Shown: positions 59 through 62,444 of the stretch, piece after piece
How positions within the stretch are numbered: the stretch's first letter is position 1
Layout: each line of letters opens with the position of its first letter
From: Parcubacteria group bacterium
GTDB taxonomy: Bacteria > Patescibacteriota > Patescibacteriia > UBA2169
Direction of reading: 5' to 3'
Assembly (NCBI GenBank): GCA_016181765.1
Contig: JACOYR010000004.1
Span: 115,937-179,936 of the forward strand
DNA length: 64,000 bases
Notes under the pieces: generated by a model
Told to the model about the DNA's origin: nothing
Database searches by the model: none
What the model saw: the letters and a program-made list of their open reading frames with translations, nothing else
Program-made: the position numbers and the translations under genes

Positions 59-66
59 TATGGTTT

Positions 67-102
67 CCCCCTCCTTTACCAAGGAGGGGGTCAGGGGGTG
101 GT
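67..102 (+). repeat. Palindromic GC-rich repeat copy 1 (ccccctcctt-tacc-aaggaggggg-tcagggggtggt)
   Basis: Hairpin plus conserved YNAGGGGGTGG tail; intergenic between dnaJ start and upstream ORF. Confidence 0.7.
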
Positions 103-1545: not shown

Positions 1546-1551
1546 ATCCTA

Positions 1552-1586
1552 CCACCCCCTAACCCCCTCCTCATTAGAGGAGGGGG
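1552..1586 (-). repeat. Palindromic GC-rich repeat copy 2, inverted orientation (ccaccccctaa-ccccctcctc-atta-gaggaggggg)
   Basis: Reverse complement matches the family consensus; lies just downstream of dnaK stop, may act as its terminator. Confidence 0.7.
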
Positions 1587-1596
1587 AACCAAGAGA

Positions 1597-11043: not shown

Positions 11044-11053
11044 ATTCCACGTT

Positions 11054-11087
11054 CCCCGCCTTACTAAGGAGGGGTTAGGGGAGGTTG
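11054..11087 (+). repeat. Palindromic repeat copy 3 (ccccgcctt-acta-aggagggg-ttaggggagg), supplies SD for dus
   Basis: Family consensus with minor degeneration, immediately upstream of dus ATG. Confidence 0.55.
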
Positions 11088-11091
11088 TACG

Positions 11092-15402: not shown

Positions 15403-15718
15403 CGGTGCTGAATCCCAGGTGCACGTACGTAACCTCCTGGGGCGCCTGCAGCGCCAGGCGCTCGGCGCGGCGCGCCACCGCGGCGAGCGAACGCGCCTGG
15501 GAGAGCTGCAAATTTAAATCACGGATCTCGCCCGCAAGCTCCGTGCGCCGCGCCTCCAGGTCGCGGATGGAAAATGTGTGCCCTGCCTCGGAGTTGAGCT
15601 GCCACACGTATACCGCGGCAAATCCGACCAACAACAGGATGAGGATGGCGTGCCATTTTACCAAGCCTGTGTTGTGCGATCGGGAATAGTGCATGGGCAA
15701 CGCGTAAGCCCGCTCCAA
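15371..15718 (-). CDS. ftsL: Cell division protein FtsL-like (single TM plus coiled coil)
   Basis: Size, topology and position between rsmH and ftsI. Confidence 0.55.
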   Translation of the reverse strand: MERAYALPMHYSRSHNTGLVKWHAILILLLVGFAAVYVWQLNSEAGHTFSIRDLEARRTELAGEIRDLNLQLSQARSLAAVARRAERLALQAPQEVTYVHLGFSTVAAYGSPLSP

Positions 15719-15729
15719 GCGCAGCGCGG

Positions 15730-16668
15730 CTACGTTTTTTGTATAATGCGCAGCTTGGCGCTCCGCGAAGGCTTGTTCGCGAGCGCCTCGGCGCGGGTTG
15801 GTTTCTTGACTTTCTTGTTTACCAGGGTGATGGTTGGCGCTTGGGCGCGCGCCGCATCCCTAAAAAAGAATTTCACGATGCGGTCCTCCAGGGAATGGAA
15901 CGATAATACCGCCATGCGCCCGCCCGGAGCGAGCAGCGAAACCAGCTCGGGCAGGGCCCTCTTGAGGTTTTCCAATTCACCGTTGGTAGCTATGCGCAGA
16001 GCCTGGAAAATGCGGGTAGCGGGGTGGATGCGGTACCTACCGCGCCCTCCGGCTCCGCGCACAACTACGTCTGCCAGTTCTCGGGTGGTGTTGATGGGCG
16101 CGCGCTTGCGCGCAGCGGCTATTGCCTGTGCTGCGCGAGCGGCGTGCCGCTCTTCACCATATTCGGTGAATATTCGTTCCAGAGATTTCTCTGGCCAGGT
16201 GTTCACTATCTCGCGCGCGGTTAGCGTCCCCTGGTCAGAAAACCTCATGTCTAGCGGTCCTTCAGTGTTGAAACTAAATCCTCTAGACTCGTCTTTGAGT
16301 TGATCGCGAGATACACCCAGATCCAGTAGTACAGCGCTAACCGGATAAAATCGTTGTTCATACGCAATTCGTTTTGTTTCGGTATAATTTGCTTGTTTGA
16401 AGATGACTCTCTTTGCTTCCCCCTCCTTTGTCCTCAAGGAGGGGGCGAGGGGGTGGTTGTACTTTGCAAGGCGTTTTTGTGAACGCCCGATCGCGTCCTG
16501 GTCCCAGTCAATGGCGAGGAGCCTCCCGTTTGGGGCCGTTGCGTTAAGGATCGCTTCCGCGTGTCCCCCTCCGCCCACGGTTGCATCTATGACAAGCGCT
16601 CCGGGTTTCAAATTAAGCCCATTAACTGCCTCCTCAAGCATGACGGGAATTTGTAGGGATTCACTCAT
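15730..16668 (-). CDS. rsmH: 16S rRNA (cytosine1402-N4)-methyltransferase RsmH, containing an in-frame palindromic-repeat insertion
   Basis: RsmH motifs (DATVGGGGH, LLDLGVS, GFSF); repeat copy 4 at 16419-16457 translates as NHPLAPSLRTKEGEA. Confidence 0.9.
   Translation of the reverse strand: MSESLQIPVMLEEAVNGLNLKPGALVIDATVGGGGHAEAILNATAPNGRLLAIDWDQDAIGRSQKRLAKYNHPLAPSLRTKEGEAKRVIFKQANYTETKRIAYEQRFYPVSAVLLDLGVSRDQLKDESRGFSFNTEGPLDMRFSDQGTLTAREIVNTWPEKSLERIFTEYGEERHAARAAQAIAAARKRAPINTTRELADVVVRGAGGRGRYRIHPATRIFQALRIATNGELENLKRALPELVSLLAPGGRMAVLSFHSLEDRIVKFFFRDAARAQAPTITLVNKKVKKPTRAEALANKPSRSAKLRIIQKT
16419..16457 (+). repeat. Palindromic repeat copy 4, located inside rsmH coding sequence in frame
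   Basis: ccccctcctt-tgtcctc-aaggaggggg-cgagggggtggt matches family consensus. Confidence 0.7.
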
Positions 16669-16817
16669 GGCATTAAAAAGGAGCTCTTACAAAAGCTCCA
16701 CTAAAAAACAATGCAAAACAGTCATGCGAAAAAAAACTGGATGTGTTTTGTTTTTGTTTTTTGGCGTAAAGCCTTTGGGTCATAGCGCGAGCTGCCTCGC
16801 GGTATGATTGAAAGACA

Positions 16818-17246
16818 TTACACTCCGAGCTCTTCCGCGATTTTGGCGGAATCTTTCTCGGTAGCAAGCTTGTACTTTTCCCAAGTCTTGGCATCCCACA
16901 CTTCCAAGCGGTTGTGCAAACCCGCAATGGTGGTGTCTTTTTTGATGCCGGCAAATTTTCTCAAATACTCCGGGATTAAGATGCGGCCCTGGCTGTCCAG
17001 TGACACGTCCATGGCGCCGGCGAGCATAAGGCGGCTGAATGCGCGCGATGTGCCTTGCGAGAGCGGGAGGCCGGAAAGCCTCTCTACAAATTTTTTCCAC
17101 TCATCCGGGGTGTACACGAACAAGCAGTTATCAAGTCCCCTTGTGACGATTGCCCCTTTTTTCAAAGTCTGGCGGAATTTGGCGGGAATTGCCATTCTGC
17201 CTTTCCCATCAATGGAATGTTGGTACTCTCCGATGAACATGGCCAC
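16818..17246 (-). CDS. mraZ: Transcriptional regulator MraZ
   Basis: Tandem MraZ repeats with DxxxR motifs (IDGKGRMAIP, LDSQGRILIP). Confidence 0.9.
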   Translation of the reverse strand: MAMFIGEYQHSIDGKGRMAIPAKFRQTLKKGAIVTRGLDNCLFVYTPDEWKKFVERLSGLPLSQGTSRAFSRLMLAGAMDVSLDSQGRILIPEYLRKFAGIKKDTTIAGLHNRLEVWDAKTWEKYKLATEKDSAKIAEELGV

Positions 17247-17380
17247 TCTTTATCAACAGTTTTGGTGACTTATCCCCACTTCCATCCACCTTTCACCACT
17301 GTGCAGGTATTATACACCACTTTGCATTTCATCACAACCCCCTGCAAGAGGGGTTTTACGCACAACTTATTCACAACAGC

Positions 17381-17456
17381 ATTCCCCCTCCTTGATTTAA
17401 GGAAGGCTTGACTAAACATTCCCCCTCCTTGATAAGGAGGGGGTTAGGGGGTGGTA
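17381..17456 (+). repeat. Palindromic repeat copy 5 with partial tandem duplication, upstream of mraZ
   Basis: cattccccctccttgat occurs twice (17380 and 17418); second unit completes aaggaggggg-ttagggggtggt. Confidence 0.65.
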
Positions 17457-17489
17457 AAAAAAAAGCCAATCCATGTAGGTCTGGATTGG
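17453..17489 (-). terminator. Rho-independent terminator (hairpin gccaatcca...tggattggc followed by T-run on minus strand)
   Basis: 9-bp stem plus poly-T on minus strand, downstream of small membrane protein gene. Confidence 0.5.
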
Positions 17490-17666
17490 CCGTGGTATAT
17501 CTGCAACGGCGGCGCTTGACTTTGTCAAGGTCCACGTTGGTAAGGAGGCGGTAACGCGCCTGCTGCGCCATGGGCCCCGTCCCCTTGCGGGGCTTAGCTA
17601 CGGACGAAGAACAACTGGCTTGTCAGTCCCGCGCCAGCTTCGGTTTGTAGCGGAGTAGATGACTCC

Positions 17667-17903
17667 TTATCTCCCCCAAATCTCACCCGCAAGCCGAACG
17701 GGTATTGCAAGAACAGACAACGCCAAAAACACAAGAAATCCCAGAAGCAGTGCAGTTGCTGCTGCCTCTCCCGCTCTACCTAAGGGGCCATGCCGAAGGC
17801 CGATCTTAGAAGTATCATTCATGAATGAGCGGAAGATGAATAGAGAGATGATGAGCGATATCACTATCAACCATGGGTTCATAGCTGACTCTCCTTGACC
17901 CAT
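17667..17903 (-). CDS. Small membrane protein (78 aa, two TM helices)
   Basis: Strong SD (AAGGAGA) 7 nt upstream of ATG; hydrophobic. Confidence 0.45.
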   Translation of the reverse strand: MGQGESAMNPWLIVISLIISLFIFRSFMNDTSKIGLRHGPLGRAGEAAATALLLGFLVFLALSVLAIPVRLAGEIWGR

Positions 17904-17970
17904 GTGCTCGGTCCGGTGAGGGTGAAAAAACGTAGCCTAACTTGTTGACAAAATACAATTTTAACCTATC

Positions 17971-18111
17971 TAGGACTTACGCGTTTGCCGTCATTCTGGA
18001 GCGAGGGTACTCCCGAGCGATAGAATCTATGCGTTTTTCACGGAGATTCTATCGGCTTTGAGTACAAAGCCTCCAGAATGACGACTATTTTTGTCAAACG
18101 CGTAAGTCCTA
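17971..18111. mobile_element. MITE-like 141-bp element with 17-bp terminal inverted repeats (TAGGACTTACGCGTTTG ... CAAACGCGTAAGTCCTA) and nested internal palindromes
   Basis: Directly visible TIRs plus a second inner inverted repeat (CCGTCATTCTGGAG / CTCCAGAATGACG) and a central palindrome (cgatagaatct / agattctatcg); non-coding. Confidence 0.5.
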
Positions 18112-18114
18112 TAA

Positions 18115-18375
18115 TTGTCATTACCATATACTGCTTTTACTACTAACTGTATGAAAATCAAGTACGACAAAACAACTGACACGCTTTACGTTGAATTTTT
18201 GGATACCACGGTCACCACCAAGCGGCTATCGGACGACATTGCCGTTGATTATGATGCCGCCGGAAAACTGGCCGGCATTGAGGTGCTGGGCGCGAAACAT
18301 CTCGTTTCAGAGGAATGGCCCAACCGGCATGTGGAATACCAGGAAGACGCGCTTGCGAAAGTGCAGCGGCTCTAG
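18115..18375 (+). CDS. DUF2283-family small protein
   Basis: MKIKYDKTTDTLYVEF... pattern typical of DUF2283. Confidence 0.55.
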   Translation: MSLPYTAFTTNCMKIKYDKTTDTLYVEFLDTTVTTKRLSDDIAVDYDAAGKLAGIEVLGAKHLVSEEWPNRHVEYQEDALAKVQRL

Positions 18376-18408
18376 CGGCTGGCGTGTGCTTTGCGAACGG
18401 ACGCGGCG

Positions 18409-18819
18409 TTAACCGCGCTTTTTTGGGATGATGTCCGGCTCACGCCCGTACTCGGGTATGATGATGGCTGGGGTTTTTGACGTTTTGCGGCGGCGTTTGA
18501 ACAACACAGCTATTTTATCAATCCCCTGTTCTTTTGAAACGCCGACAACAGGAATCTGCAATGCGTATGCCAAGGCATTGGCCGTTGCAATGCCGATGCG
18601 CAGGGACACGAACGAACCCAGGCCGCGGACGCAGGCGATGCCGCGTATATCTGACAGTGACGCTTTTGCCTGCGAAAGCATGCGCTGAATTGACGCTAAT
18701 AATTTTTCCGAATGCTGGCGGTTTGATGCGACGGTTTTTGTGCGGACGACTCCCCCGTCATTCACCAGTGCGACGGCAAATGAGTCGCGCTCGGTTGTAT
18801 TGATATAAAGATACATCAC
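18409..18819 (-). CDS. tsaB: tRNA threonylcarbamoyladenosine biosynthesis protein TsaB (YeaZ-like)
   Basis: N-terminal Kae1/YeaZ fold pattern (LYINTTERDSFAVAL...GSFVSLRIGIATANALAYAL). Confidence 0.8.
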   Translation of the reverse strand: MMYLYINTTERDSFAVALVNDGGVVRTKTVASNRQHSEKLLASIQRMLSQAKASLSDIRGIACVRGLGSFVSLRIGIATANALAYALQIPVVGVSKEQGIDKIAVLFKRRRKTSKTPAIIIPEYGREPDIIPKKRG

Positions 18820-18852
18820 GGTGATAGTAGTATTTCAGGAGCAAAAAGTAAA

Positions 18853-18878
18853 CCCCGCCTTATCCGAAGGCGGGGCCT
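18853..18878 (-). terminator. Stem-loop ccccgcctt-atccg-aaggcgggg downstream of hypothetical gene
   Basis: 9-bp perfect stem. Confidence 0.35.
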
Positions 18879-19245
18879 AGTGGTTTGCGTGGTTCGGAAA
18901 CCGCTCACGCAGTTTTTGCGGAAAGTTCGGGTGCCGGGCATACTCGCGGAACGCCCTGCGCTCAACGCCGGCTGGGGCGCGCGCCATTGCCCGCGCGAAC
19001 GCGCATGCGAGCTTCCATACGCCCCTCGCAACAGTCCTCCCTTCCGCATGCTCAATGAGCGTCCTGATGTGCGGGAGGTAGCGCGCGATGTACACCCACG
19101 AGAGCGCCGCGGCGCGCACCCACCGGTGCGTTGCCCAGTGGAGCAGGTACTCCTCTTCGGAACGCGGGTACGCGTACCGCGCGAGCCGGGACACGACAAC
19201 AAGGAACAATTGCAGCCCTGTAAGCGCTCCGAGAAATTGGAGCAC
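18877..19245 (-). CDS. Hypothetical protein (122 aa, GTG start with strong GGAAGGAGG SD)
   Basis: Consensus SD 6 nt upstream of GTG; N-terminal hydrophobic segment. Confidence 0.4.
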   Translation of the reverse strand: MLQFLGALTGLQLFLVVVSRLARYAYPRSEEEYLLHWATHRWVRAAALSWVYIARYLPHIRTLIEHAEGRTVARGVWKLACAFARAMARAPAGVERRAFREYARHPNFPQKLRERFPNHANH

Positions 19246-19292
19246 GCTTTACCTCCTTCCCGTGTAAGTGAACGGGTAAAAAGGCGCCGTGG

Positions 19293-19320
19293 GCAGCAGG
19301 CCACGGCGCCGATGTCTCTG
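19293..19320 (-). terminator. Rho-independent terminator of dapB (ggcgccgtgg...ccacggcgcc plus T5 on minus strand)
   Basis: 10-bp GC stem followed by TTTTT. Confidence 0.55.
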
Positions 19321-19413
19321 CGGGGAACCCGCCTTGAGAGAGGTCCGCGGCCACCGCGGGCTGCCAGGCTCCCAGAGCCGCGACCGGTGAGGATGCGCGG
19401 CTCGCGCAGAGGC

Positions 19414-20289
19414 CTACGTCCAGATGTGCATGTTCGCGGGATTGGGCAGGCGCATCACGTCCCGCATGCGGTACACCTTCCCCTCAAAGCCGCCCGCGAC
19501 CGGCCCGGACGAGAGGGGCGAGCAGAACATGATGGCCAAAAGCGCGCCGAGCGCGAAACTCACTGTTGAGTATGCGCGCTGCTCCAGCACGAGCAAATCG
19601 TGCTGGCCTGCGAAATACACCTCATGCTCTCCAGGAAGTCCGCCGAGCCTATGCCCGGTAACCGAGATGTCACTCTCCTTGCGTTCCGCTCCCGGCCGCG
19701 CCCCGTGGCGCTGGATGACGGCTTCGGGATCAAGTCCGCGTCCTCGGGCAATGCTCCGCGCATACATCAGGGCGGTCCCGCTTAAGGGGCCCGCTTTCCG
19801 GTTGTGGTGCTTGTCCGTAACCCCAGCGTCATAGCCCGGAAAAACCTTGGCCCAGACCTCGGCGGTCCAGTCAACAAGCGTAGCTGCGGGGCTGAAGTTC
19901 GGCGCGTCCAGCACCAGCTCTCCGCGCACGGCCATCTCCTTTAGGTACTGCACGGTCGCGGGCGGAAGATCTGTGGAACCCACCACATGCCTTTTGAACC
20001 CGTTCTGAACCGCCTCCTGCATGCGTTTCAAAACTTGGTCGCCCTTTGTGGCATAGAGCACTACGGTTCCGTCCCGGTTGGAGACAAAGGCACTGGACTC
20101 GCGAGCGAGCGACGCGAATGATCCGGCCACTGCTACTCCTCCGAGTTCCTGGCTACGTTGTACGACGCCGCCATTGGGGCTCGTTACCCCGCCGACGAAC
20201 GCGCACGCTTCGGACTCAAGGATAGCACGGCACACGGGTCTGCCCAGCGCCTTCCCGTACGGACCTACCACTATGACCGGGATTTTCAC
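19414..20289 (-). CDS. dapB: 4-hydroxy-tetrahydrodipicolinate reductase (DapB)
   Basis: N-terminal Rossmann motif (IVVGPYGKALGR), HHNRKAGPLSGTA matches DapB HHRHKxDAPSGTA signature. Confidence 0.85.
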   Translation of the reverse strand: MKIPVIVVGPYGKALGRPVCRAILESEACAFVGGVTSPNGGVVQRSQELGGVAVAGSFASLARESSAFVSNRDGTVVLYATKGDQVLKRMQEAVQNGFKRHVVGSTDLPPATVQYLKEMAVRGELVLDAPNFSPAATLVDWTAEVWAKVFPGYDAGVTDKHHNRKAGPLSGTALMYARSIARGRGLDPEAVIQRHGARPGAERKESDISVTGHRLGGLPGEHEVYFAGQHDLLVLEQRAYSTVSFALGALLAIMFCSPLSSGPVAGGFEGKVYRMRDVMRLPNPANMHIWT

Positions 20290-21176
20290 TACTCACCTCC
20301 CTTTCGGGTTGGGGTTATCCTGCGTTGAGGTTGAACAACGTCAGTCACATCATCCTTAAACCCCCCGTGCTCGCGCGGCCAATCGTGGATGGCATTCACA
20401 AGCGTGTCATAGGGATAGATAAACTCTTCACCGCGCCGTGTGCCAGGATCATTGGTGATAAACTGCGTTGGCGTGTACCCGCGGATGATGAGCATGTGGT
20501 ACAGGGGCCCGTCTCCGGTAAAATTTGGGTTCCCGAGCATCCGGCCCGCAGCAGGGATAATGACGAGCTTGTTTGATGAGATGCGGCGCTTGATGTTATC
20601 AACGCTCACATCATCATCCAGCACTGCGGAACCCTTAAAATATTCCTGCCAGATGAACGCCACTTCTGCGGCTGTGGTGTCTTCGTAGTACCCGAACGTA
20701 TTCTGCTCCCAGGCAACCAGTTCTCTGATTGCCTCATCCATTTGTTCCGCGGACAAACTCTCGCCGAAAAAAAATCTATCAGCCATGATAAGGGACGCTT
20801 CTTCGCACGCTTCCTGATAGGGCAATGACCAATCAGCATGCGGAGCTTGGGATTGGAACGGGACCGCAAGGTTGTACTCAACCGGAATTCCCCCTCCTGT
20901 AACTCCGGGGTCCCCAGAAACTGCCGAAGGCATTTCTGGGGTGGAACTGAGGGGGACGGGGGGTGGTGACGCGCCCTCGCTGTCATTGCGAGGAGCCCCG
21001 TCCGGCGCATCATTAAGATTGCTTCGCTCCCCCGCCGAATCGGCGGGTTCGCTCGCAATGACATCAGAGTATGGAACAGCCTCCGGCAAACCAGGCTCTT
21101 GGTTTGCATACCAAATAATTACAGCCCCTATAATGACGATAATTACAAAAATTTTTTTCATAAAAAAGTTATCCAC
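20289..21176 (-). CDS. Membrane-anchored secreted C39-like peptidase domain protein with low-complexity linker containing an in-frame repeat copy
   Basis: N-terminal TM, candidate Cys (EACEEAS) and His (YHMLIIRGY) of C39_2-like fold; repeat at 20890-20968 encodes PPPVPLSS...GGGI. Confidence 0.5.
   Translation of the reverse strand: MDNFFMKKIFVIIVIIGAVIIWYANQEPGLPEAVPYSDVIASEPADSAGERSNLNDAPDGAPRNDSEGASPPPVPLSSTPEMPSAVSGDPGVTGGGIPVEYNLAVPFQSQAPHADWSLPYQEACEEASLIMADRFFFGESLSAEQMDEAIRELVAWEQNTFGYYEDTTAAEVAFIWQEYFKGSAVLDDDVSVDNIKRRISSNKLVIIPAAGRMLGNPNFTGDGPLYHMLIIRGYTPTQFITNDPGTRRGEEFIYPYDTLVNAIHDWPREHGGFKDDVTDVVQPQRRITPTRKGGE
20890..20968 (+). repeat. Palindromic repeat copy 6, expanded by ~50-bp internal insert, inside C39-like peptidase gene
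   Basis: ccccctcct ... gagggggacggggggtggtg flank an inner hairpin ccagaaa..ttctgg. Confidence 0.55.
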
Positions 21177-21185
21177 AATAACCTA

Positions 21186-21214
21186 TTTGACTTTCGGTTT
21201 TTCTTCGGCTATTA
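21186..21214 (+). promoter_or_regulatory. Putative sigma70-type promoter TTGACT-N17-TATTAT upstream of the 111-aa ORF/lexA operon
   Basis: Near-consensus -35 and -10 hexamers with 17-bp spacer. Confidence 0.4.
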
Positions 21215-21244
21215 TAAAACCATAACAAACGAAAAGAAAAATAT

Positions 21245-21580
21245 ATGGCAACCTCCCTCTTCCAACTCACGCTCGCGATTACCCCGGCTCTCCTGGTGGG
21301 CGCTTTTTTAAAGCGCGTAACCATGCCCTGGGAAAAAGAGAAGCGCCCCAATGAGCGCGCTATTCTACTCCGCATGCTCGCCAAGGACGTAAGCCGCGTC
21401 AAAACCATTATGGCCGCAAACATTGCGGCAGTCAACCAGGGCCGCGCGTGCACCGTACGCAGGCTCCCCCTCTCCAACTGGAACCGCCTCAAAAAAGACA
21501 CGCGCTTCCACAAGTATTCAAGCGAACCCATTTTCCGGCACATGATCAGCCAGTTCCGCGAATGGGAGCGCGCCTATTAA
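21245..21580 (+). CDS. Hypothetical protein (111 aa) immediately upstream of lexA
   Basis: Stop 2 nt before lexA start; same strand. Confidence 0.3.
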   Translation: MATSLFQLTLAITPALLVGAFLKRVTMPWEKEKRPNERAILLRMLAKDVSRVKTIMAANIAAVNQGRACTVRRLPLSNWNRLKKDTRFHKYSSEPIFRHMISQFREWERAY

Positions 21581-21581
21581 T

Positions 21582-22169
21582 ATGACCATCATCTTACCAA
21601 ACAAAAAACAGCAGCTGCTTGATTTTTTGAAATCATACGTCAAGGACCGGGGATACGCGCCCACGCTCTCGGAGATCGCGAAAAAATTCAAGGTCTCGTC
21701 CCTAGCTACGGTGCACGAGCACATGGCGTTTTTGGAGAAGCACGGGTTCATCAAGCGCACGGGCAACATCCAGTCCCGGGAACTTGAAATTGTGAGGAGC
21801 GGAAGCAATGTGGAACCAACCTTCCTGGAAGGCAGCATGCACTCCCTGCCCCTGGTTGGATTGATTACCGCAGGAGCGCCCATTGAGGCAGTGGAGAACC
21901 GCGAAGCGGAGATCGCGGTGCCCGCGGAGATTACGCGCGGCAGGCAGTGCTATATGGACGGGGATTTGGTGATTGTGGAAAAAACCGAATACGCCAAGAA
22001 CGGGGACATGGTGGTTGCGGTGCTGGATGATGGAACCGCGACTCTGAAGAAGTTCTACAAGGAAAAGAACTACGTGCGCCTTCAGCCCGCGAACGCCAAG
22101 TACCAACCCCTGATGGTTGAGAATGTGATCATTCGCGGCAGGGTGGTGGGGATTATCAGGAAGTACTAA
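21582..22169 (+). CDS. lexA: LexA-like repressor (wHTH plus S24 peptidase domain)
   Basis: N-terminal LexA DNA-binding domain (GYAPTLSEIAKKF), Ala-Gly site (ITAGAP), MDGDLVIV and Lys (TLKKFYK) of S24 fold. Confidence 0.8.
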   Translation: MTIILPNKKQQLLDFLKSYVKDRGYAPTLSEIAKKFKVSSLATVHEHMAFLEKHGFIKRTGNIQSRELEIVRSGSNVEPTFLEGSMHSLPLVGLITAGAPIEAVENREAEIAVPAEITRGRQCYMDGDLVIVEKTEYAKNGDMVVAVLDDGTATLKKFYKEKNYVRLQPANAKYQPLMVENVIIRGRVVGIIRKY

Positions 22170-22208
22170 ATTTTGGGTGCAAGCAGTTTTTTCTGCTATA
22201 ATTTAGAT

Positions 22209-23165
22209 ATGCCGAAAATACATAAAAAAAGAAAAACGGTACTGGAACTTTGCGCGGGCGGTGGTGGACAATTTTTAGGATTAGAAGGGGCGGGATTTGA
22301 TTGTGTCGGCGCTGTTGAAATAGAGGAAGAGTATTGCCGAACTCTTACGCACAACCGACCCGGCCTAAACGTTATAAATTACGATTTAAAGCAATTTAAT
22401 GCGAAAAATTTTTTAGGGGTTGATTTAGTCGCAGGCGGGGTTCCCTGTCCTCCATTTTCCATTGCGGGCAAACAGCTAGGACAAAAGGACGATAGAGATT
22501 TATTTCCCTATGCGCTCAAAATAATAGGGCAAGCCGACCCAAAAGCGGTATTGCTTGAAAATGTTCCCGGCCTGGCTTCGGCAAAATTTGCAACCTACAG
22601 AAGAAATATTCAAAAAAAATTAACTGATTTGGGTTATTGGTCTGATTGGAAAATATTAAATGCTTCCGATTTTGGGGTGCCGCAATTGAGGCCTAGATTT
22701 ATATTGGTGGCGGTAAAAAACGGATTAAAAAATTTTTTTGAATGGCCGAGGACTCTCTCAACTAAAGTTACGGTTGGAGAAGCCCTCTTTGATTTAATGT
22801 CAGCCAATGGCTGGACAGGCGCGCATAAGTGGTTGAAAAAAGCAAACAATGTCGGCCCAACCTTAGTGGGAGGTTCAAAAAAACACGGCGGGCCTGATTT
22901 GGGGCCAACACGAGCGCGAGAGCAATGGAAAAATTTGGGAGTTGACGGATTAGGCATTGCCGATTCTGCTCCGGAAATAAAATTTCCACATAACAAACTA
23001 CCAAGGTTGACCGTGCGCATGACTGCCCGTATCCAGGGCTTCCCGGATTCCTGGCATTTTCCGGGGCGAAAAACTTCATCATACAGGCAAATTGGCAACG
23101 CTTTTCCACCCGCAGTCGCCAAAGCAGTTGGGTTTAGAATCATCAAAGCCATCCAAACAACATGA
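22209..23165 (+). CDS. DNA (cytosine-5)-methyltransferase (type II R-M, M subunit)
   Basis: Motif I LELCAGGGG, motif IV GGVPCPPFS, motif VI ENVPGL; AT-rich island. Confidence 0.9.
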   Translation: MPKIHKKRKTVLELCAGGGGQFLGLEGAGFDCVGAVEIEEEYCRTLTHNRPGLNVINYDLKQFNAKNFLGVDLVAGGVPCPPFSIAGKQLGQKDDRDLFPYALKIIGQADPKAVLLENVPGLASAKFATYRRNIQKKLTDLGYWSDWKILNASDFGVPQLRPRFILVAVKNGLKNFFEWPRTLSTKVTVGEALFDLMSANGWTGAHKWLKKANNVGPTLVGGSKKHGGPDLGPTRAREQWKNLGVDGLGIADSAPEIKFPHNKLPRLTVRMTARIQGFPDSWHFPGRKTSSYRQIGNAFPPAVAKAVGFRIIKAIQTT

Positions 23166-23734
23166 AAAGAGACAGGGAGAAAGGATCAAAACAAAAAATT
23201 CTTGATTTCCTTACCGATAATATCGGGAAAGTCGTAAACTCAAAGGAAATTCAAGAGGCTTCTGGCTGGGCCGCTGAATGGGCACGGCGCGTCCGTGAGC
23301 TGCGCGATGAACAGGGGTATCAAATTCTGTCGCACAAAGACCGCGCTGATTTGAAGCCAGGACAGTACATAATGGCCACCAAAAAAAGAAAACCGGCTTT
23401 TGCTCGCGGCATTTCCAAGGAAACAAAAGCTATAGTGTTGGAAAGAAACGGTTTTACCTGTCAAAGCTGCGGCTTAGCAGCAGGCGATCCCGACCCTTTT
23501 CACACTGGCAGGACTATCCGCCTTACTATGGGCCATATTATTGATAAATCAAAAGGCGGTCCAGATTCTCCCGAAAATTTAAAAGCTATGTGTACAAACT
23601 GTAACGAAGGATTACAGAATGCCGCCCTACCAAAACCCAATACAGTCCAGCTTCTGGCGCAGGTCAGAAGAGGCACCATTGAGAGTCAACAAGCCGTTCT
23701 TGATTGGCTTATAAAAAAATACAAAAAGCATTAA
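23162..23734 (+). CDS. HNH endonuclease, probable cognate restriction enzyme (ATGA start/stop overlap with methyltransferase)
   Basis: CxxC...H-N..CxxC HNH motif (CQSCG...GHIIDKSKGG...NLKAMCTNCN) preceded by wHTH-like domain. Confidence 0.75.
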   Translation: MKRDREKGSKQKILDFLTDNIGKVVNSKEIQEASGWAAEWARRVRELRDEQGYQILSHKDRADLKPGQYIMATKKRKPAFARGISKETKAIVLERNGFTCQSCGLAAGDPDPFHTGRTIRLTMGHIIDKSKGGPDSPENLKAMCTNCNEGLQNAALPKPNTVQLLAQVRRGTIESQQAVLDWLIKKYKKH

Positions 23735-23743
23735 CACTAGTAC

Positions 23744-24202
23744 ATGCAAGTTCACAATCCCGATTACTATAACGTTGCGCTCAAAATTATCTTAAAAAAT
23801 AAAAAAGGGAAAATTTTAGTACTCAAAAACGCCGAAGAGACCGGGGAAGGTGATTATTATGATATGCCCGGGGGTAGAATTAACACGGATGAATTTACCA
23901 CTCCATATGAAACACTTATTGACCGAGAATTAAAAGAGGAGATTGGAGGAGATGTAAAATATAAATTATCGCTTGATCCAGTTTCGTTTGGGCGACATGA
24001 ATATTTTTCTGTACGTCAAAAAAAAGAAATCCGCGTATTCTACCTGCTCTTTGAGGCAGAATATATTGCAGGTGTCCCCATAGTATCTCATGAGCACAGC
24101 GGCTATAAATGGTTGCGCCTAGAAAATATTCCATTTGAAAAATACTTTATAAAGGGAATGCTTGAGTCTGTGAAGCGATACGCGGCAAATCAAAAATCTT
24201 GA
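23744..24202 (+). CDS. NUDIX hydrolase
   Basis: Nudix box GGRINTDEFTTPYETLIDRELKEEIG. Confidence 0.85.
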   Translation: MQVHNPDYYNVALKIILKNKKGKILVLKNAEETGEGDYYDMPGGRINTDEFTTPYETLIDRELKEEIGGDVKYKLSLDPVSFGRHEYFSVRQKKEIRVFYLLFEAEYIAGVPIVSHEHSGYKWLRLENIPFEKYFIKGMLESVKRYAANQKS

Positions 24203-24263
24203 TTCACAAACAAGTATCTGATATAATGCAAACGTACTAGCGCAACTACAGATACCAGTTCAG

Positions 24264-24296
24264 AAAAACAGCCGATGCTATCGGCTGTTTTTCTTT
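24264..24296. terminator. Bidirectional rho-independent terminator (aaaaacagccgatgctatcggctgttttt)
   Basis: Perfect stem flanked by A-run and T-run between convergent nudix and rluB. Confidence 0.7.
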
Positions 24297-25021
24297 TTGA
24301 GTGATGCAATCTCCTGCGGAGTAAGTTGCCGGTACGCGCCCTCCTTGAGGCCGCCGAGTTTGATCGGGCCCATGCGTACGCGCGTGAGGGATACCACGGA
24401 TGCGCCGATGGCGTTGATCATCTGCCGCACCTGGTGCTTGCGGCCCTCGTGGATGGCGATGCAAATGAGGTACTGGCGCGCTCCAATCTTTTTGATGAAG
24501 CGCGTTTTGGCGGGGCTTGTTCTGCCGGTGGTGATCTTCACACCCTGCCGGAGCCGCTCCAGCCCTTTCTTGAGAAGCCCGGCTCCCCAGTTGCCCGGAA
24601 TCTCCACCACTGCCTCATATTCTTTCTCGTGCTCAAACTTTGGGTGCGTGAGCTCGTACACGAGCTCCCCGTCGTTCGTGAGAATGAGGAGGCCCGTGGT
24701 ATCAACATCAAGCCTGCCCACCGGAACGATCCGTTCCCGCGTTTTGACGATATCTAAAACTGTTGTGCGGCCGCGGTCATCATGCGCGGTTGAGAGCACG
24801 CCTTTGGACTTGTGCAGCAAAAAATAGACTTTAGAGCCTTCGTGTCCAAGCGGTTTGCCGTTTATGGTGATGCGGTCGCGCTGTACCTCAACCCGCGTTC
24901 CGAGTTTCGTGATCTTTTGGCCGTTGACCTTGACTCTGCCCGCACGGATCAGTTTTTCAGCGGCGCGGCGCGAGGCAGCCCCGGCGTCCGCAATTGCTTT
25001 CTGCAGCACCACTCCCTCCAT
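24278..25021 (-). CDS. rluB: 23S rRNA pseudouridine synthase RluB/RsuA family
   Basis: S4 domain plus catalytic VGRLDVDTTGLLILTNDGEL motif. Confidence 0.9.
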   Translation of the reverse strand: MEGVVLQKAIADAGAASRRAAEKLIRAGRVKVNGQKITKLGTRVEVQRDRITINGKPLGHEGSKVYFLLHKSKGVLSTAHDDRGRTTVLDIVKTRERIVPVGRLDVDTTGLLILTNDGELVYELTHPKFEHEKEYEAVVEIPGNWGAGLLKKGLERLRQGVKITTGRTSPAKTRFIKKIGARQYLICIAIHEGRKHQVRQMINAIGASVVSLTRVRMGPIKLGGLKEGAYRQLTPQEIASLKKKNSR

Positions 25022-25022
25022 G

Positions 25023-25652
25023 CTACACTCCGAGCTTGTTAATGACGGTAATCTTACGGCCGTTCAGAATGGTGAAGATGAACCTGTCCCCAAGCTCCAC
25101 GCGGTGCTGAAACTCTTTTTTGTTCATGACCGTGTACTTTAAGTCGCGGCCGCTCTCTTTGAGGTAATTTTTTACGAACTGCTCCAGCTTGGGCTTTTGC
25201 ACGCGGCCCACGATGAAAATGTCAACCGGCGATTCTGCCTGGCCCACGAACGAGCCGGCGAGCACTAAGAGGTCCATGGTGCCCACCTTCTCCAGCTGGC
25301 CGACCAGCTTCTGCTCCCCGAGCTCGCGCGACTTTAAGAGCAGGGACTTGAGCTCCGGCACCAGCAAAAAATCTTTGTTCACGCCGTAGTACTTGCGCTT
25401 GTCCTTTTCCTGGGACACCACAAGCCCCACGTCTTCCAGATTTTCCAGCTCCCGGCGCACTGAATTCAAATGCTCCCCGAGGATGCGGGCAAGCTCGCGG
25501 ATGTAGTAGTCCCGTTCGTCCGTGGGGCCCGCCAAAAAGAGCTTTAGGAGCTTTACCCGAACCTTTGACCCGAAAATGTGCTCAAGCATACACAAAATTT
25601 GTTCACTGATAGCAGATGTAGTATAATACCTTGATACCCCCACGTCAACCAC
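25023..25652 (-). CDS. Winged-helix (ArsR-like) transcriptional regulator with C-terminal nucleotidyltransferase-like domain
   Basis: HTH region (RDYYIRELARILGEHLNSVRRELENLEDVGLV) then DLLVLAGSFVGQAESPVDIFIVG. Confidence 0.4.
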   Translation of the reverse strand: MVDVGVSRYYTTSAISEQILCMLEHIFGSKVRVKLLKLFLAGPTDERDYYIRELARILGEHLNSVRRELENLEDVGLVVSQEKDKRKYYGVNKDFLLVPELKSLLLKSRELGEQKLVGQLEKVGTMDLLVLAGSFVGQAESPVDIFIVGRVQKPKLEQFVKNYLKESGRDLKYTVMNKKEFQHRVELGDRFIFTILNGRKITVINKLGV

Positions 25653-27835
25653 GGCCCCAAAAAAACAATATGAAAAGCCGCCAATCCACCATTGTTTCCA
25701 CGGAGGTTTTAAGGCAGTCCGGAGCCCCGGGCACGCTTGAGGTGTTTGATCTCTCCCACGAGCGCGCCCGGGACAAAAAACTCGTGGTGCTTGTGGAAAT
25801 AGAGATCTCAGACCGCGACAACGAAATCATCGTTGAGGATATCGTCCGGGAATTGGAGTACCAATTTTTTAACGCGCCCACCCAGGAAACGGAGTACGCG
25901 TTTGAAAACGCGCTCGCCAAGGCGAACATCAAAATCAAAGATACGCTGCTCGGGAAACCGAAAAACTGGCTGAACCGCATCCACATCGCGGTGCTCGGGC
26001 TCGCGGAGAGCGAGGTGCACCTCGCAGCAGTAGGCATGGTGCACGCATTTTTGGTGCACAACGAAAAAATCGTGGACGTGCTCAAATCTCCGAACGATGC
26101 ATCCGCGCCCAACCCCATTAAGCTCTTCACCAACATCATAAGCGGCAAACTCACAAACGAAACCGCACTGGTGCTTACCAATGAATCCGTGCTTGACTAC
26201 CTCTCGGTGGAGCGTATCCGGAAGTGCGCCCGGGAGTTTGAGGCCCCGGAGGCGTGCGCCGCGCTCACCGAACTCCTGGCGCGCGCGCCGAGCCACAAGC
26301 AGTTCGCCCTGGCGGTCGTCTCCCCCGCGCGCGCGAGCGTGGAGCCGCGCGAAACGGCGCGCCCAAGCGTACCCAAAGCGCGGTACGCGGAAGAGGCAAC
26401 GCTGGCCGCCGAATACCAGCCCGCGCTGCCCGAAAGCGCGCCCTACCCCGAGGCGATCACGCGTTTTGAAGAAGGCGGACAAACAGCCCAAGCCGTTCTT
26501 GCGCGAATGGGGCAATATTCCCGGGCAGCCTTGACGTTTATGCTCGCGACACTCGCAAAGCTCCTGGAAGCGTTCCAGAGAGCGCTCAAACGCGCCATCC
26601 CGGCCATGGTGGCTTTTGAAAAAACCGTCGCAGCAAGCCTGAAAAACGGCAATACCCGATCCTATATGCGGCAGCGGATCAAAAATACGGCGGCCGCGTG
26701 GACCCGCAACCTTGTGTACGGGCAATCTAAAAAACGGAAGCTCGCCGGGCTCGCCGCGGTGGCGCTGGTACTCGTGTTCGCGGGGAGCATCGCAGTGCGC
26801 GCGCGCCGGCAGAACCAAGAAAGCCGGATTGCGGAATTTCAGGGGCGCATCGCGAGGGTTGAACAAAAGGTGAGCGAGGCGGAAGCGTCCCTCATCTACG
26901 GAAACAAAATCAAATCCCAAACACTGCTTGCCGAAGTGCAGGCCCTGATTGCCGAGCTTGAGCGCGAATTTCCGGACGAGGAAGCGCGGTACCAGGCGCT
27001 CGCGGGCGCCATCGCAACACTTCAGAATAAGAGTGAGAAAAAGCAGCCTATAAGCGACATTGCGACTGTTGCAACCATCATTCCCGCGCCCATTTCCGCG
27101 AACGAATCCGGGCTTGCCGCGCTCGGAGAAACCATATTCTTCTACGACGGGGTGCAGGAAAAAATCGCGAGACTGGATGCCGAAAACGGGCTCCTGCTTT
27201 CGCTCGCCCTTACACCCTCGGGCATGGCCCCGTTCAATACCGCGCTTCCCCTTGAGGGAAGCGCTATCGCGGCCCTGGCTCCGCAAGCCGCGCTCATTGT
27301 GGACGCGGATGGCGAAACCGTAGCGCGCCAGGAATTCCCCTATGCCCCGGAGAGCGCCAAGCCGTTCGCCGCGTACGGCACCAGTTTGTACACGTGGAGC
27401 GCTGAAGAAAACCAGATTATCAGGTTCAGGCGGGCCGGAGCAGGCTTTACCGCGCCCCAAAAGTGGCTCACCGGAGAGTACGAGTTCGCCACCATGCAAG
27501 ACATTGCGGTTGACGGATTCGTTTACCTGCTGGACTCCCAGGGCACCATACACGCGTTCCTGCGCGGGAGCCTGAACAAGACCATCCCCTGGGGCGCGAT
27601 TGAACTGCCCGGAGACTACGTGCGGCTCTACACCACGGAACAAGGAACCCGGCTGTATGTCCTGGATCCCGCGTACAGCCGCGTGGTGATCACGAGCAAA
27701 GAGGGTGAACTTCTGACCCAGCTCACCAACCCCATTCTGAATGATGTGACGGACCTTGCGATTGGCGCGGACGAAAAGAGCCTGTACGCGCTCGCCGGAG
27801 ACAAAATCTACCGCATCAACATTCCGGACTACTAA
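25631..27835 (+). CDS. Large hypothetical membrane protein (734 aa: cytoplasmic N-domain, one TM, coiled coil, C-terminal beta-rich domain); start may be at 25670
   Basis: Coding-like composition, TM helix LAGLAAVALVLVFAGSIAV, followed by strong terminator; antisense 694-aa ORF judged spurious. Confidence 0.5.
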   Translation: MIPPRQPRPQKNNMKSRQSTIVSTEVLRQSGAPGTLEVFDLSHERARDKKLVVLVEIEISDRDNEIIVEDIVRELEYQFFNAPTQETEYAFENALAKANIKIKDTLLGKPKNWLNRIHIAVLGLAESEVHLAAVGMVHAFLVHNEKIVDVLKSPNDASAPNPIKLFTNIISGKLTNETALVLTNESVLDYLSVERIRKCAREFEAPEACAALTELLARAPSHKQFALAVVSPARASVEPRETARPSVPKARYAEEATLAAEYQPALPESAPYPEAITRFEEGGQTAQAVLARMGQYSRAALTFMLATLAKLLEAFQRALKRAIPAMVAFEKTVAASLKNGNTRSYMRQRIKNTAAAWTRNLVYGQSKKRKLAGLAAVALVLVFAGSIAVRARRQNQESRIAEFQGRIARVEQKVSEAEASLIYGNKIKSQTLLAEVQALIAELEREFPDEEARYQALAGAIATLQNKSEKKQPISDIATVATIIPAPISANESGLAALGETIFFYDGVQEKIARLDAENGLLLSLALTPSGMAPFNTALPLEGSAIAALAPQAALIVDADGETVARQEFPYAPESAKPFAAYGTSLYTWSAEENQIIRFRRAGAGFTAPQKWLTGEYEFATMQDIAVDGFVYLLDSQGTIHAFLRGSLNKTIPWGAIELPGDYVRLYTTEQGTRLYVLDPAYSRVVITSKEGELLTQLTNPILNDVTDLAIGADEKSLYALAGDKIYRINIPDY

Positions 27836-27840
27836 CCAAA

Positions 27841-27877
27841 AAACACCGGGGAGCCGTGCGGCTCCCTGGTGTTTTTG
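27841..27877. terminator. Bidirectional rho-independent terminator (aaacaccggggagccg-tgcg-gctccctggtgttttt)
   Basis: Long perfect stem with A/T runs between convergent genes. Confidence 0.75.
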
Positions 27878-27892
27878 TAATGCGCGGAACAA

Positions 27893-28324
27893 TTATTTGA
27901 GTGCAACCGTGGCGCCCGCTTCTTCCAATTTCTTCTTCAGAGCCTCGGCGTCTTCTTTCTTGACGCCTTCTTTTACGATCTTCGGAGCGCCGTCAACCAA
28001 ATCCTTGGCTTCTTTCAAGCCGAGCTCCGTGACCTCGCGGACCGCCTTGATAACCGCGATCTTGGTGGCACCGGCGCTCACGAGCTCAACGTCAAACGTT
28101 GACTTCTCTTCCTCGGCCGGAGCAGATGCGGCTGCGGCTCCCGCCATCATCATAGGAGCTGCGGCTGACACGCCGAACTTCTCCTCCAAAATCTTTACGA
28201 GCTCCGAGAGGTCCAAGACGCTCATCTGCTCTATTTTTTCAACGAGGTCCTTGAACTTTGCCGGAACCTCTGCTTTCTTTTCGCCCTCTGCCGCGGCAAT
28301 AGGCTGCTTTGCTTCGTCTGCCAT
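27893..28324 (-). CDS. rplL: 50S ribosomal protein L7/L12
   Basis: Canonical L7/L12 sequence including hinge [14 protein letters not shown] and C-terminal domain. Confidence 0.95.
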
Positions 28325-28368
28325 AGTATGTCTCCTTAAGTTATGGGTGATAGATGAATAAATTGACG

Positions 28369-61160: not shown

Positions 61161-62408
61161 CTATATATTTGAAACCAGCTCTGTTTCTTTTGCGCCGCGC
61201 TTTTTGGCTTCAATCTTGCCTTTGGTCTTGGGGCTTATGACGAGCCGGGTTGGAATGCCGATTAAATCCGCATCTGCGAACTTTTCCGCGTTGGACGCTT
61301 CACGCCTATCATCCCATAACACTTCTTTTCCGCCCGCGGCCAGCGACTCGTACACTTTTTCGGACTGCTGGTATACTGCATCATCATCGCCCAAGCTAAC
61401 CAGGTGATAAGCAAAAGGCGCAACTTCCTCGGGCCAGATGATGCCATGCTCGTCATGGTGCACTTCCACGATCGCGCCCATTAAACGGGAGATGCCGATG
61501 CCATAGCAGCCGATGATGACCTCTTTTGATTTCCCGCTTTCATCCGTAAACTTGAGGCCGAAATCTTTGGAAAACTTGGTTCCCAAATCAAAGATATTTC
61601 CGACTTCAATAGTCTTGAGCTCTTTGACGGGTGTGCCGCAGTCAGGGCACGCCACCCCCCCTTTCTTCCCCCCCTTACCAAGGGGGGGATTGAGGGGTGG
61701 TAGATTTGCGATTTCCTTATTTTGCGCAAACCCGCAATCGCACGCAAAAATCACATCTTCCCCGTTCTCGGTTGCAACCTGGAACTCGTGCGAGTACTCT
61801 TTGGTGAATGACCCGCCCGATGCCTCGGTGATGATCGCGTCCAAGCCGCAGCGCTTGAAAACTTTTGCGTACGCGCCTTTCGCCTTTTCGTAGTATAGCT
61901 TGAGATCTTCGGCAGACGCGTGGAAGCTGTACAAATCTTTCATCAAAAATTCGCGGCCGCGCAGCAACCCGGCTTTGGCGCGCAGCTCATCCCTGAACTT
62001 GGTCTGAATCTGGTACCAGGCCCGCGGCAAATCGCGGTAGGAATTAATGTGCTTTTTGGCCAAAGGCACAATCACCTCTTCGTGGGTCGGGCCCAGGGCG
62101 TACTCGGATCCCGCGCGCGAGGGAACTTTGAACAGCACGTCCATGCTGTCCCATCGCCCGGTCTTCTGCCAGTTCTCTTTGGGGTGCAGGGCGGGCAGGG
62201 AAACTTCCTGCCCGTTGATTGCATCCATCTCCTCGCGCACAATAGCGCTGATATTTTCCAGAACCCGGACGCCTAATGGCAGGTATGAATACACGCCCGC
62301 CATCAACTGGTCAACAAACCCGGCGCGCACTAAAAAATTGTGGTTTGCGCTCTGCGCGCTCCCCTCGCCGGTTTTGCTTGTTTTGCTGAAGAGAAGCGAC
62401 TGCCGCAT
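61161..62408 (-). CDS. proS: Prolyl-tRNA synthetase, minimal form lacking editing insertion, with in-frame palindromic-repeat insertion between two Cys pairs
   Basis: ProRS class II motifs (MRQSLLFSKT, FRDE, SFH); repeat copy 7 encodes LPPLNPPLGKGGKKGGV. Confidence 0.9.
   Translation of the reverse strand: MRQSLLFSKTSKTGEGSAQSANHNFLVRAGFVDQLMAGVYSYLPLGVRVLENISAIVREEMDAINGQEVSLPALHPKENWQKTGRWDSMDVLFKVPSRAGSEYALGPTHEEVIVPLAKKHINSYRDLPRAWYQIQTKFRDELRAKAGLLRGREFLMKDLYSFHASAEDLKLYYEKAKGAYAKVFKRCGLDAIITEASGGSFTKEYSHEFQVATENGEDVIFACDCGFAQNKEIANLPPLNPPLGKGGKKGGVACPDCGTPVKELKTIEVGNIFDLGTKFSKDFGLKFTDESGKSKEVIIGCYGIGISRLMGAIVEVHHDEHGIIWPEEVAPFAYHLVSLGDDDAVYQQSEKVYESLAAGGKEVLWDDRREASNAEKFADADLIGIPTRLVISPKTKGKIEAKKRGAKETELVSNI
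61654..61703 (+). repeat. Palindromic repeat copy 7 inside proS coding sequence
   Basis: cccccccttaccaaggggggg-attgaggggtggtag, family consensus with C/G-homopolymer stem. Confidence 0.65.
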
Positions 62409-62444
62409 ATAGGGATATTCTACCACGCACGCTCTAAAAATCAA

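Follow-up and report, generated by a model that had tools for sequence, protein, structure and literature searches.

The gene of a C39-like peptidase in a 64-kb stretch of the genome of a Parcubacteria group bacterium (hereafter the window, that is, the whole stretch of DNA that was analysed) contains a segment that we interpret, with a probability of roughly 80%, as a composite of two small palindromic repeats carried in frame in the disordered tether of the encoded protein. Under this interpretation, an outer hairpin-plus-tail element of ~40 nt would host an independent hairpin of ~37 nt in its loop, and the composite would be translated as ~28 extra residues, rich in Pro, Gly, Ser and Thr, in the linker that connects the membrane anchor to the C39-like domain. 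Such an insertion would be tolerated because the frame that is used contains no stop, the number of nucleotides is divisible by three, and there is no fold in a flexible linker that could be disturbed. The gene and the parts of the composite are as follows.

20289..21161, - strand: gene of the C39-like peptidase, 290 aa, with the ATG at 21161
20888..20967, + strand (the G-rich strand is on +): composite repeat copy, delineated by repeat search, pattern search, MAFFT alignment and folds
20888..20898, + strand: left arm of the outer hairpin, TTCCCCCTCCT, 11/11 to the family consensus
20899..20948, + strand: expanded loop of 50 nt, compared with loci L001 and L129
20906..20944, + strand: inner hairpin unit, CGGGGT-CCCCAGAAA-c-TGCC-GAA-GGCA-TTTCTGGGG-TGG, with the - strand translation TPEMPSAVSGDP
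20949..20967, + strand: right arm GAGGGGG, spacer ACG and G-rich tail GGGGGTGGT, found by repeat and pattern searches and by alignment

The open reading frame (ORF) 20289..21176 on the - strand, which is open from a GTG at 21176 (295 aa), continues across the composite, reading ...SPPPVPLSSTPEMPSAVSGDPGVTGGGIP..., so that the segment is read through in the peptidase gene, as claimed in an earlier note on this DNA. The gene uses the C-rich strand of the composite, ACCACCCCCC-GT-CCCCCTC...CAGGAGGGGGAA, and the linker peptide predicted from the read-through includes ...SSTPEMPSAVSGDPGVTGGGIPVEYNLAVPF.... Residues 103-244 of the 295-aa ORF match Peptidase_C39_2 (Pfam PF13529; E = 4.5e-10), with a score of 40.7 bits against a gathering cutoff of 24 and with positions 1-142 of the 143 in the profile covered. 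The peptidase is 100% identical to an NCBI entry (P0001), a 290-aa 'C39 family peptidase [Parcubacteria group bacterium]' from a metagenome-assembled genome (MAG), on a 281-kb contig. The protein consists of a membrane helix (aa 2-19), a disordered linker (~aa 21-85) and a peptidase domain that starts at ~aa 95. In an AlphaFold2 model for which 16 orthologues served as input, the N-terminal helix spans residues 2-19, the predicted local distance difference test (pLDDT) score stays below 50 for residues 33-85, and the folded domain begins at ~95; this layout of helix, disorder and domain places the composite in the disordered tether that joins the membrane anchor to the catalytic domain.

The outer family is ~40 nt long and has the structure TTCCCCCTCC (also written CCCCCTCC)-loop-GGAGGGGG-NNN-GGGGGTGGT. 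In the repeat search, it was recovered as family D5, composed of TTCCCCCTCCTT, a loop of 3-4 nt, AAGGAGGGGG, TNA and GGGGGTGGT; copies of D5 and of the inverted pairs I1/I2 are located at 65-102, 1551-1588 (opposite strand), 16420-16457 and 17418-17455, with a degenerate copy at 61664-61701. The right half of the composite, 20948-20967, reads TGAGGGGGACGGGGGGTGGT and agrees with GGAGGGGGNNAGGGGGTGGT in 18 of the 20 positions; when up to 3 mismatches are allowed, GGAGGGGGNNAGGGGGTGGT has 5 matches in the window, compared with 0.03 expected from shuffles, and the fifth of these, with 2 mismatches, is 20948-20967. The left arm pairs with the right arm, TGAGGGGG, in an outer stem of 7-8 bp, and the ACG spacer is followed by GGGGGTGGT at 20956-20967. 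In a MAFFT alignment of nine copies (A2), both halves of the composite fall in register with the family, and an insert block of 44 columns is left over. The earlier note had assigned the two halves to a repeat family, an assignment to be given up if formal alignment revealed no similarity, and had placed an insert of ~50 bp with a hairpin between them; the alignment upholds both points, the insert corresponding to the 50-nt loop and its 13-bp hairpin. The pairing of the arms is also apparent among the outer copies that were compared: in all three with CCCCCTCT on the left, the right arm is its match, AGAGGGGG, although one copy pairs CCCCCTCC with AGAGGGGG.

It is the loop that sets the composite apart from canonical copies. 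The distance from TCCCCCTC to GAGGGGG is 52 nt in the composite vs 10 nt in canonical copies, so that the composite falls outside the range of 7-15 nt between the 8-nt arm cores that defines short-loop copies, and represents an expanded variant that it shares with L129. The 13-bp inner hairpin (CCCCAGAAA-c-TGCC/GAA/GGCA-TTTCTGGGG, 20912-20941) occurs nowhere else in the window. Either strand of the composite folds into one hairpin nested in another, with -37.6 kcal/mol for the sense strand and -45.3 kcal/mol for the other (z = -2.9 for both).

Three other accounts of the repeats were considered and rejected, namely, chance similarity of low-complexity sequence, by the shuffle statistics given above; CRISPR, in view of the absence of spacer periodicity; and intrinsic terminators, given that most copies have no downstream U-run. 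A search of Rfam at the gathering score returned nothing beyond two tRNAs and an L10 leader, with sub-threshold noise only over 20700-21250.

The synteny of LexA, a 111-aa ORF, C39 and DapB is kept around the C39 loci that were fetched for comparison, and because these neighbouring genes are conserved, the loci are true orthologues. In all of them, the repeat site is the codon boundary directly before (I/V)P-x-x-YNL, and this site is polymorphic among syntenic relatives, being filled, short-filled or empty. At this position, the canonical short copy of L001 is ACCACCCCCCGACCCCCTCCTGAATACAGGAGGGGGA, which is translated as LPPPDPLLNTGGG, and L003, a locus with 43% GC and a protein that is just 53% identical, carries the short copy ACCACCCCCCAACCCCCTACTTTTCAAGGAGGGGGA, read as TTPQPPTFQGGG. 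The site is empty in L214 (between ..NDSEN and VP) and in L215 (between ..NDNEG and VP), and L002 contains other hairpins and no family copy. The left half of the element is read in different frames in L001 and in L003 (LPPPDPL vs TTPQPP, the latter in L003), which implies that what is shared is a DNA element rather than a peptide. Compared with L001, 49 nt in the window replace 7 nt of the loop, for a net gain of 42 nt, or 14 codons; compared with the empty site of L215, the gain is 84 nt, or 28 codons.

These orthologues also bear on whether the segment could be an artefact, that is, a mis-assembled stretch of repeats or, if the true start is located downstream, non-coding repeats upstream of the gene. 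The source is a MAG, just one contig is known to encode the protein, and repeats are classic sites of assembly errors. Nevertheless, an artefact is very improbable: the frame is open through both the composite and a second palindrome described below, orthologues conserve both the membrane helix upstream and the motif LPEAVPYSDV, there is no in-frame start with an anchor downstream of the repeats, and in-frame short copies occupy the same site in independent assemblies (L001 and L003/L004).

Both modules of the composite exist independently, the outer element as short copies and the inner hairpin on its own. Species-representative genomes were scanned with a loose seed of the inner hairpin, and the matches listed were mostly chance hairpins or unrelated repeat families; the sole true relative among the matches listed is L109, from the AT-rich MAG 'bacterium ARS1386', and the window's own genome is not among them. 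The L109 hairpin, cggggtCCCCAGAAACTGCCacaGGCATTTCTGGGGt, is solitary, is identical to that of the window in 35 of the 37 positions (BLAST) and differs in the loop alone. It encodes the C-terminus of a GT2 glycosyltransferase, ...NFTPEMPVAVSGDPEKYE up to the stop, in the frame that is also used in the window, with the peptide ...TPEMPVAVSGDP.... The GGGGT/ACCCC flank is found in 30 of the 125 seed matches listed, compared with ~0.24 expected, and the flanked hairpin (GGGGT-CCCCAGAAA...TTTCTGGGG) is multi-copy in Chthonomonas, in Nitrospirota/Thermodesulfovibrio and in an unclassified MAG (L005-L124, e.g., L005, L012, L024 and L076); this enrichment in multi-copy repeats indicates that the inner hairpin belongs to a broader hairpin class.

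In the Joint Genome Institute (JGI) metagenomes, the exact pattern CCCCAGAAACTGCCN{3,5}GGCATTTCTGGGG had 0 matches, the pattern being too strict because the copy of the relative has CCCCGGAAA. A metagenome scan for outer copies with long loops yielded 89 loci (L125-L213), mostly tandem or inverted doublets or variants with longer stems. However, L129 and L132, which are one contig from two samples, and L216, a longer version of it, contain the whole composite, ACCACCCCCTCGCCCCCTCC-AAATACC-ACCCCAGAAATGCCTTCGGCAGTTTCCGGGGACCCCG-AGTTA-GAGGAGGGGGAA, with an inner unit identical to that of the window in 38 of the 39 positions (blastn-short). In this close relative, the composite is intergenic, 13 nt upstream of the start of secA, and the SecA encoded at the L129 locus shares 92% identity with P0268, the SecA that the 281-kb contig of the window itself encodes. 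The latter protein is annotated with 590 aa vs ~930 aa in relatives, and may be truncated or split.

The composites of the window and of L129 share junction bases (T(G/C)TAACTC at one junction and TGG at the second) that are lacking in the solitary L109 copy, which favours a composite that originated once and then spread, or converted a resident short copy, over fresh nesting in the C39 gene. Judging from these sequences, we consider it reasonably probable that the composite was nested once, in an ancestor, and reached the C39 gene either whole or through conversion of a short copy already present there. The alternative, which we regard as possible but doubtful, is nesting in place, with the inner hairpin of 37-40 nt inserted into the loop of a short copy resident in the C39 linker and the secA composite arising in a separate event or as a later copy. 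This alternative draws on L001, which has the upstream SEG motif in common with the window and carries a short copy exactly here, with the identical right arm CAGGAGGGGGA, on the solitary occurrence of the inner hairpin elsewhere, and on the AACT at 20901-20904 and 20945-20948, which flanks the inner unit and may be a 4-nt duplication of the target. However, this duplication is not present in L129, and with the junctions of the window and L129 shared beyond the L109 core, one origin of the composite is more economical.

Template switching can generate perfect nested hairpins, and the inner hairpin of the second palindrome in the same linker differs in each orthologue, as would be expected if long loops were made locally by replication slippage or template switching, without any second element. 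For the composite, this explanation is close to refuted, given that the same 37-nt sequence is present in the unrelated L109 and in L129 and that its flanked form is multi-copy in several phyla, far in excess of the expectation. Thus, comparing orthologues and looking for the inner unit as an independent repeat, the two checks proposed in the earlier note, both gave positive results, and the nested insertion that it suggested is real. One qualification applies: the composite upstream of secA indicates that the nesting probably predates its arrival in the C39 gene.

The second palindrome of the linker, element B, is unrelated to the composite and has a similar architecture.

20982..21062, + strand: element B, read as VIASEPADSAGERSNLNDAPDGAPRND, with a fold of -43.7 kcal/mol, z = -3.2

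Element B is located directly upstream of the composite within the tether and consists of outer arms of 11-12 bp, GTCATTGCGAG and CTCGCAATGAC, and the inner hairpin CCCGCCGAnnCGGCGGG, with the peptide VIAS...APRNDS. It was compared with the loci L215 (6162-7055), L002 (1934-2836) and L214 (888-1646). The arms of the element (GTCATTGCGAG...GAAGCAATC...CTCGCAATGAC) are kept across orthologues, and the inner hairpin is different in each, namely, CCCGCCGATTCGGCGGG in the window, GGGGGTCTAATGACCCCC in L215 and CCCCGTTGAAAAACGGGG in L002. By the pattern of kept arms and exchanged hairpins, element B is a second case of hairpin-in-loop modularity. The window appears to have lost a segment, present in L215, between two GCTCCT(C)GCAATG repeats. 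More generally, the linkers of orthologous C39 proteins are mosaics of translated palindromes, including VIAS..ERSN, IAASPPEAAPRNDS, RHPE..VKDP..LRYTQDD and SPPYQGGDKGG. A separate, intergenic near-perfect palindrome of 95 nt is located at 17989-18083 (CGTCATTCTGGAGCGAGG... / ...CCTCCAGAATGACG), and its arms resemble a linker element of the GTCATT type.

The outer family is abundant in this genome, with seven copies in the window, six of them besides the composite, and three of the seven are intragenic. The six copies are as follows.

65..102, + strand: intergenic copy near the start of a dnaJ-like gene (MAKDYYQILGV, identified by inspection)
1551..1588, - strand: intergenic copy between the dnaK stop (1597) and the ATG of the next ORF (1545)
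11046..11088, + strand: degenerate intergenic copy just upstream of dus, after a 525-aa ORF; absent from L215
16414..16455, + strand: copy in RsmH (ORF 15730..16668, - strand), read as NHPLAPSLRTKEGE
17379..17455, + strand: intergenic tandem pair of one degenerate and one full copy, a 77-nt block absent from L215
61664..61701, + strand: degenerate copy in prolyl-tRNA synthetase (ProRS; ORF 61161..62444, - strand), read as LPPLNPPLGKGG

Several of these sites are filled in the window and empty in close relatives. The RsmH copy is a 42-nt in-frame block that is absent from the otherwise 85% identical RsmH of L215 and also corresponds to extra residues in comparison with solved RsmH structures; the predicted peptide contains ...YNHPLAPSLR.... 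In ProRS, the insert of 36 nt, or 12 aa, is in frame between the CxCG and CPxCG motifs (two Cys pairs); of the 30 closest orthologues, 29 lack it, including one that is 87% identical; one orthologue (P0123) has a different Pro/Gly insertion, of 7 residues, at the identical spot. L215 aligns with positions 10690-29335 of the window at ~81% nucleotide identity and is devoid of family copies: in a block-by-block alignment, those at 11046, 16414, 17379 and 20888 of the window are all absent. The tandem pair at 17379-17455 directly follows a terminator-like hairpin that is common to both. Family copies thus were recently gained or lost between close relatives, and the outer family looks recently mobile.

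The intragenic inserts, of 84, 42 and 36 nt, are all multiples of three and free of stops, and the intergenic ones are 43 and 77 nt long. This is the outcome predicted by selection on translated insertions, and it argues against bypassing or excision of the inserts. In the scenario that we favour, the outer family would be a mobile or conversion-prone element similar to the known palindromic repeats discussed below; inside genes, the survivors would be the stop-free copies with lengths divisible by three in permissive loops or linkers; and in the peptidase, the insertion would be neutral or nearly so, with a longer tether as its sole effect.

The family is also read through in proteins of other organisms. 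In L180, the Pkinase domain of a Ser/Thr kinase of 845 aa is interrupted by an in-frame copy; in L148, a tandem array is read through in the linker between the N-domain of DsbD and its transmembrane part; and copies are read through in the linker of an Fe-S/CCG protein in L166 and in a peptidase M56-HEAT linker in L209. Tandem copies are also found in L143 and L157, and inverted doublets, arranged head to head, in L131, L141, L146, L155, L169, L181, L185, L192, L203 and L207, with none in the window. The contigs with the outer family (L125-L213) range from 34 to 73% GC, and the family may extend well beyond Parcubacteria. Copies in the linkers of unrelated proteins, together with element B and the mosaic linkers of the C39 orthologues, lend support to the further suggestion in the earlier note that Pro/Gly-rich linkers partly originate from such repeats.

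The arms of the outer element resemble the Shine-Dalgarno sequence (AAGGAGG) and its complement, anti-Shine-Dalgarno (CCUCCUU), and three intergenic copies in the window are located 5-10 nt upstream of a start codon. For the copy at 65..102, 7 nt separate the arm AAGGAGGGGG on the - strand from the dnaJ-like start, and the GGAGG core is 10 nt upstream. In L215, the start of dus overlaps the stop of the preceding gene (TAATG); the window has the element between the two, and the element supplies a GGAGG located 7 nt upstream of the dus ATG. We surveyed the distance between the element and the nearest start over 116 copies, a measurement that is very noisy in high-GC contigs. By its sequence, the tail AGGGGGUGGU could pair with the 3' end of 16S rRNA. 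A tentative extension of these observations, which we consider possible rather than likely, is that the outer repeat is a widespread modular element that brings its own translation signals, offers its loop as a landing pad for hairpins and serves as a recurrent source of disordered linkers, in Parcubacteria and other bacteria. If so, the translation signals would allow it to land between translationally coupled genes, as at dus, and would likewise permit harmless insertions within genes, in two open frames.

The same features might instead suggest that the segment works as an RNA or DNA structure, for example, as a translation pause in membrane targeting, or as a regulatory or bypassed segment: the sense-strand fold is stable, GGAGG/CCUCC is present in the arms, the location just after the signal anchor suits a pause, and intergenic copies adjoin start codons. 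We nevertheless consider such a function improbable, given that the close orthologues L214, L215 and L002 lack the element, that neither bypassing nor excision requires the stop-free, frame-keeping lengths seen in all three intragenic inserts, and that nothing was matched in Rfam.

Several considerations weigh against the interpretation of the segment as an in-frame composite of mobile repeats. Its translation is deduced from the reading frame. The filled and empty RsmH sites differ without any target-site duplication, and no transposase was found in the window, where none of the 67 ORFs matches any Pfam transposase family. Loss from the relatives through precise excision is indistinguishable from gain in the lineage of the window. 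The assignment of L215 and L216 to one genome is based solely on their common European Nucleotide Archive (ENA) sample and their identical GC content. Finally, near-identical sequence across contigs with 34-73% GC is odd for a selfish repeat, a range unusually broad for REP-like repeats, and hints at a sequence-specific constraint.

A low-GC (0.44) block at 22170-24264 of the window, with genes for an HNH endonuclease, a NUDIX protein and a C5 cytosine DNA methyltransferase, is absent from the otherwise syntenic L215 and is probably a small mobile restriction-modification island. The adjacent genes 32847-34427 and 34437-36008 encode paralogous cofactor-independent phosphoglycerate mutases and share DNA repeats that are 1575-1578 nt apart. 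The 1628-aa ORF at 40062-44948, for which the only match is DUF5667, contains internal DNA repeats of 70-116 nt (families D2-D4), and its product is probably a large repetitive surface protein. Two modules of the toxin-antitoxin type, at 50321-51016 and 53335-54170, encode an AbiEii nucleotidyltransferase toxin and a HepT-like RNase with a Polbeta/MNT nucleotidyltransferase.

The C39 locus and its relatives provide a concrete case, with filled and empty sites, of disordered linkers that are created and lengthened by small palindromic repeats. Such repeats also insert peptides into essential enzymes (RsmH and ProRS) of the reduced Parcubacteria genomes, and they nest in one another's loops, after which the composite appears at new loci. 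Much of the difference in length between orthologues is explained by these elements, which produce recurring peptides such as 'PPLxPPL..GGG', 'VIAS..ARND' and 'TPEMPxAVSGDP' in predicted proteins, and the elements are likely trouble spots for the assembly and homology-based annotation of MAGs. In the full-text literature, within an incomplete coverage, there was no report either of elements resembling Rickettsia palindromic elements (RPE), repetitive extragenic palindromic (REP) sequences or MITEs (miniature transposable elements with inverted repeats) in Patescibacteria or of these sequences.

Among known systems, the GC clusters of yeast mitochondria and the 'byp' elements are small, mobile, GC-rich hairpins in protein-coding genes; the byp elements are skipped by the ribosome, so that the frame need not be kept. 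In contrast, the intragenic inserts in Parcubacteria all keep the frame and contain no stops, which points to ordinary translation rather than to byp-like skipping.

REP sequences and REPINs, which are mobilised by REP-associated tyrosine transposases (RAYTs), are GC-rich imperfect palindromes of 20-40 nt with an asymmetric conserved end, mostly intergenic, although some are intragenic and encode 20-30 residues (Di Nocera et al. 2013, PMC3733652). The Parcubacteria family is palindromic and multi-copy, with its seven copies in 64 kb, three of them intragenic, and occurs as single copies and as tandem or inverted doublets. It differs in that there is no consistent GTAG/CGTC tag, with GTAG following the tail in a subset only (at 1551 and 61664 in the window and in L173, L178 and L211) and most copies lacking it, and in that half of the well-preserved copies in the window are intragenic. 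No gene for a RAYT (a tyrosine transposase of the IS200/IS605 type) was detected by Pfam among the 67 ORFs of the 64-kb window. REPs have also been described as targets for the insertion of insertion sequences (IS) (PMC3733652), and the composite similarly contains a second element inside a palindromic repeat, although here the guest is itself a 37-nt hairpin devoid of coding capacity and not an IS.

MITEs that fuse in frame with host ORFs, such as ERIC, BOX, Correia and cyanobacterial elements, are small non-autonomous repeats that can be read as part of the host protein (PMC10969869, PMC3184786). The Parcubacteria element is also a small repeat read through within a host protein, but it has no terminal inverted repeats apart from the hairpin, produced no target-site duplication in RsmH, and is shorter than the usual 70-300 bp.

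The behaviour of the element matches that of intragenic REPs and of the RPE, short palindromic repeats that are scattered over a small genome and of which many are located in frame in unrelated genes, housekeeping genes included, where they contribute a peptide at surface positions that tolerate it (PMC10969869, PMC3733652). The Parcubacteria element, too, is a palindromic repeat in frame in functional genes (C39 peptidase, RsmH and ProRS), each of which has orthologues with an empty site. It is, however, not homologous to RPE-1 to RPE-10, has Parcubacteria as its hosts, lacks the CGTC tag and measures ~40 nt, compared with roughly 100-150 nt for the classic RPE families; furthermore, it is found in contigs with 34-73% GC, combines a hairpin with an asymmetric G-rich tail, and forms a nested composite. 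The outer element thus works like the RPE without being a member of them, and represents a new family of a known kind.

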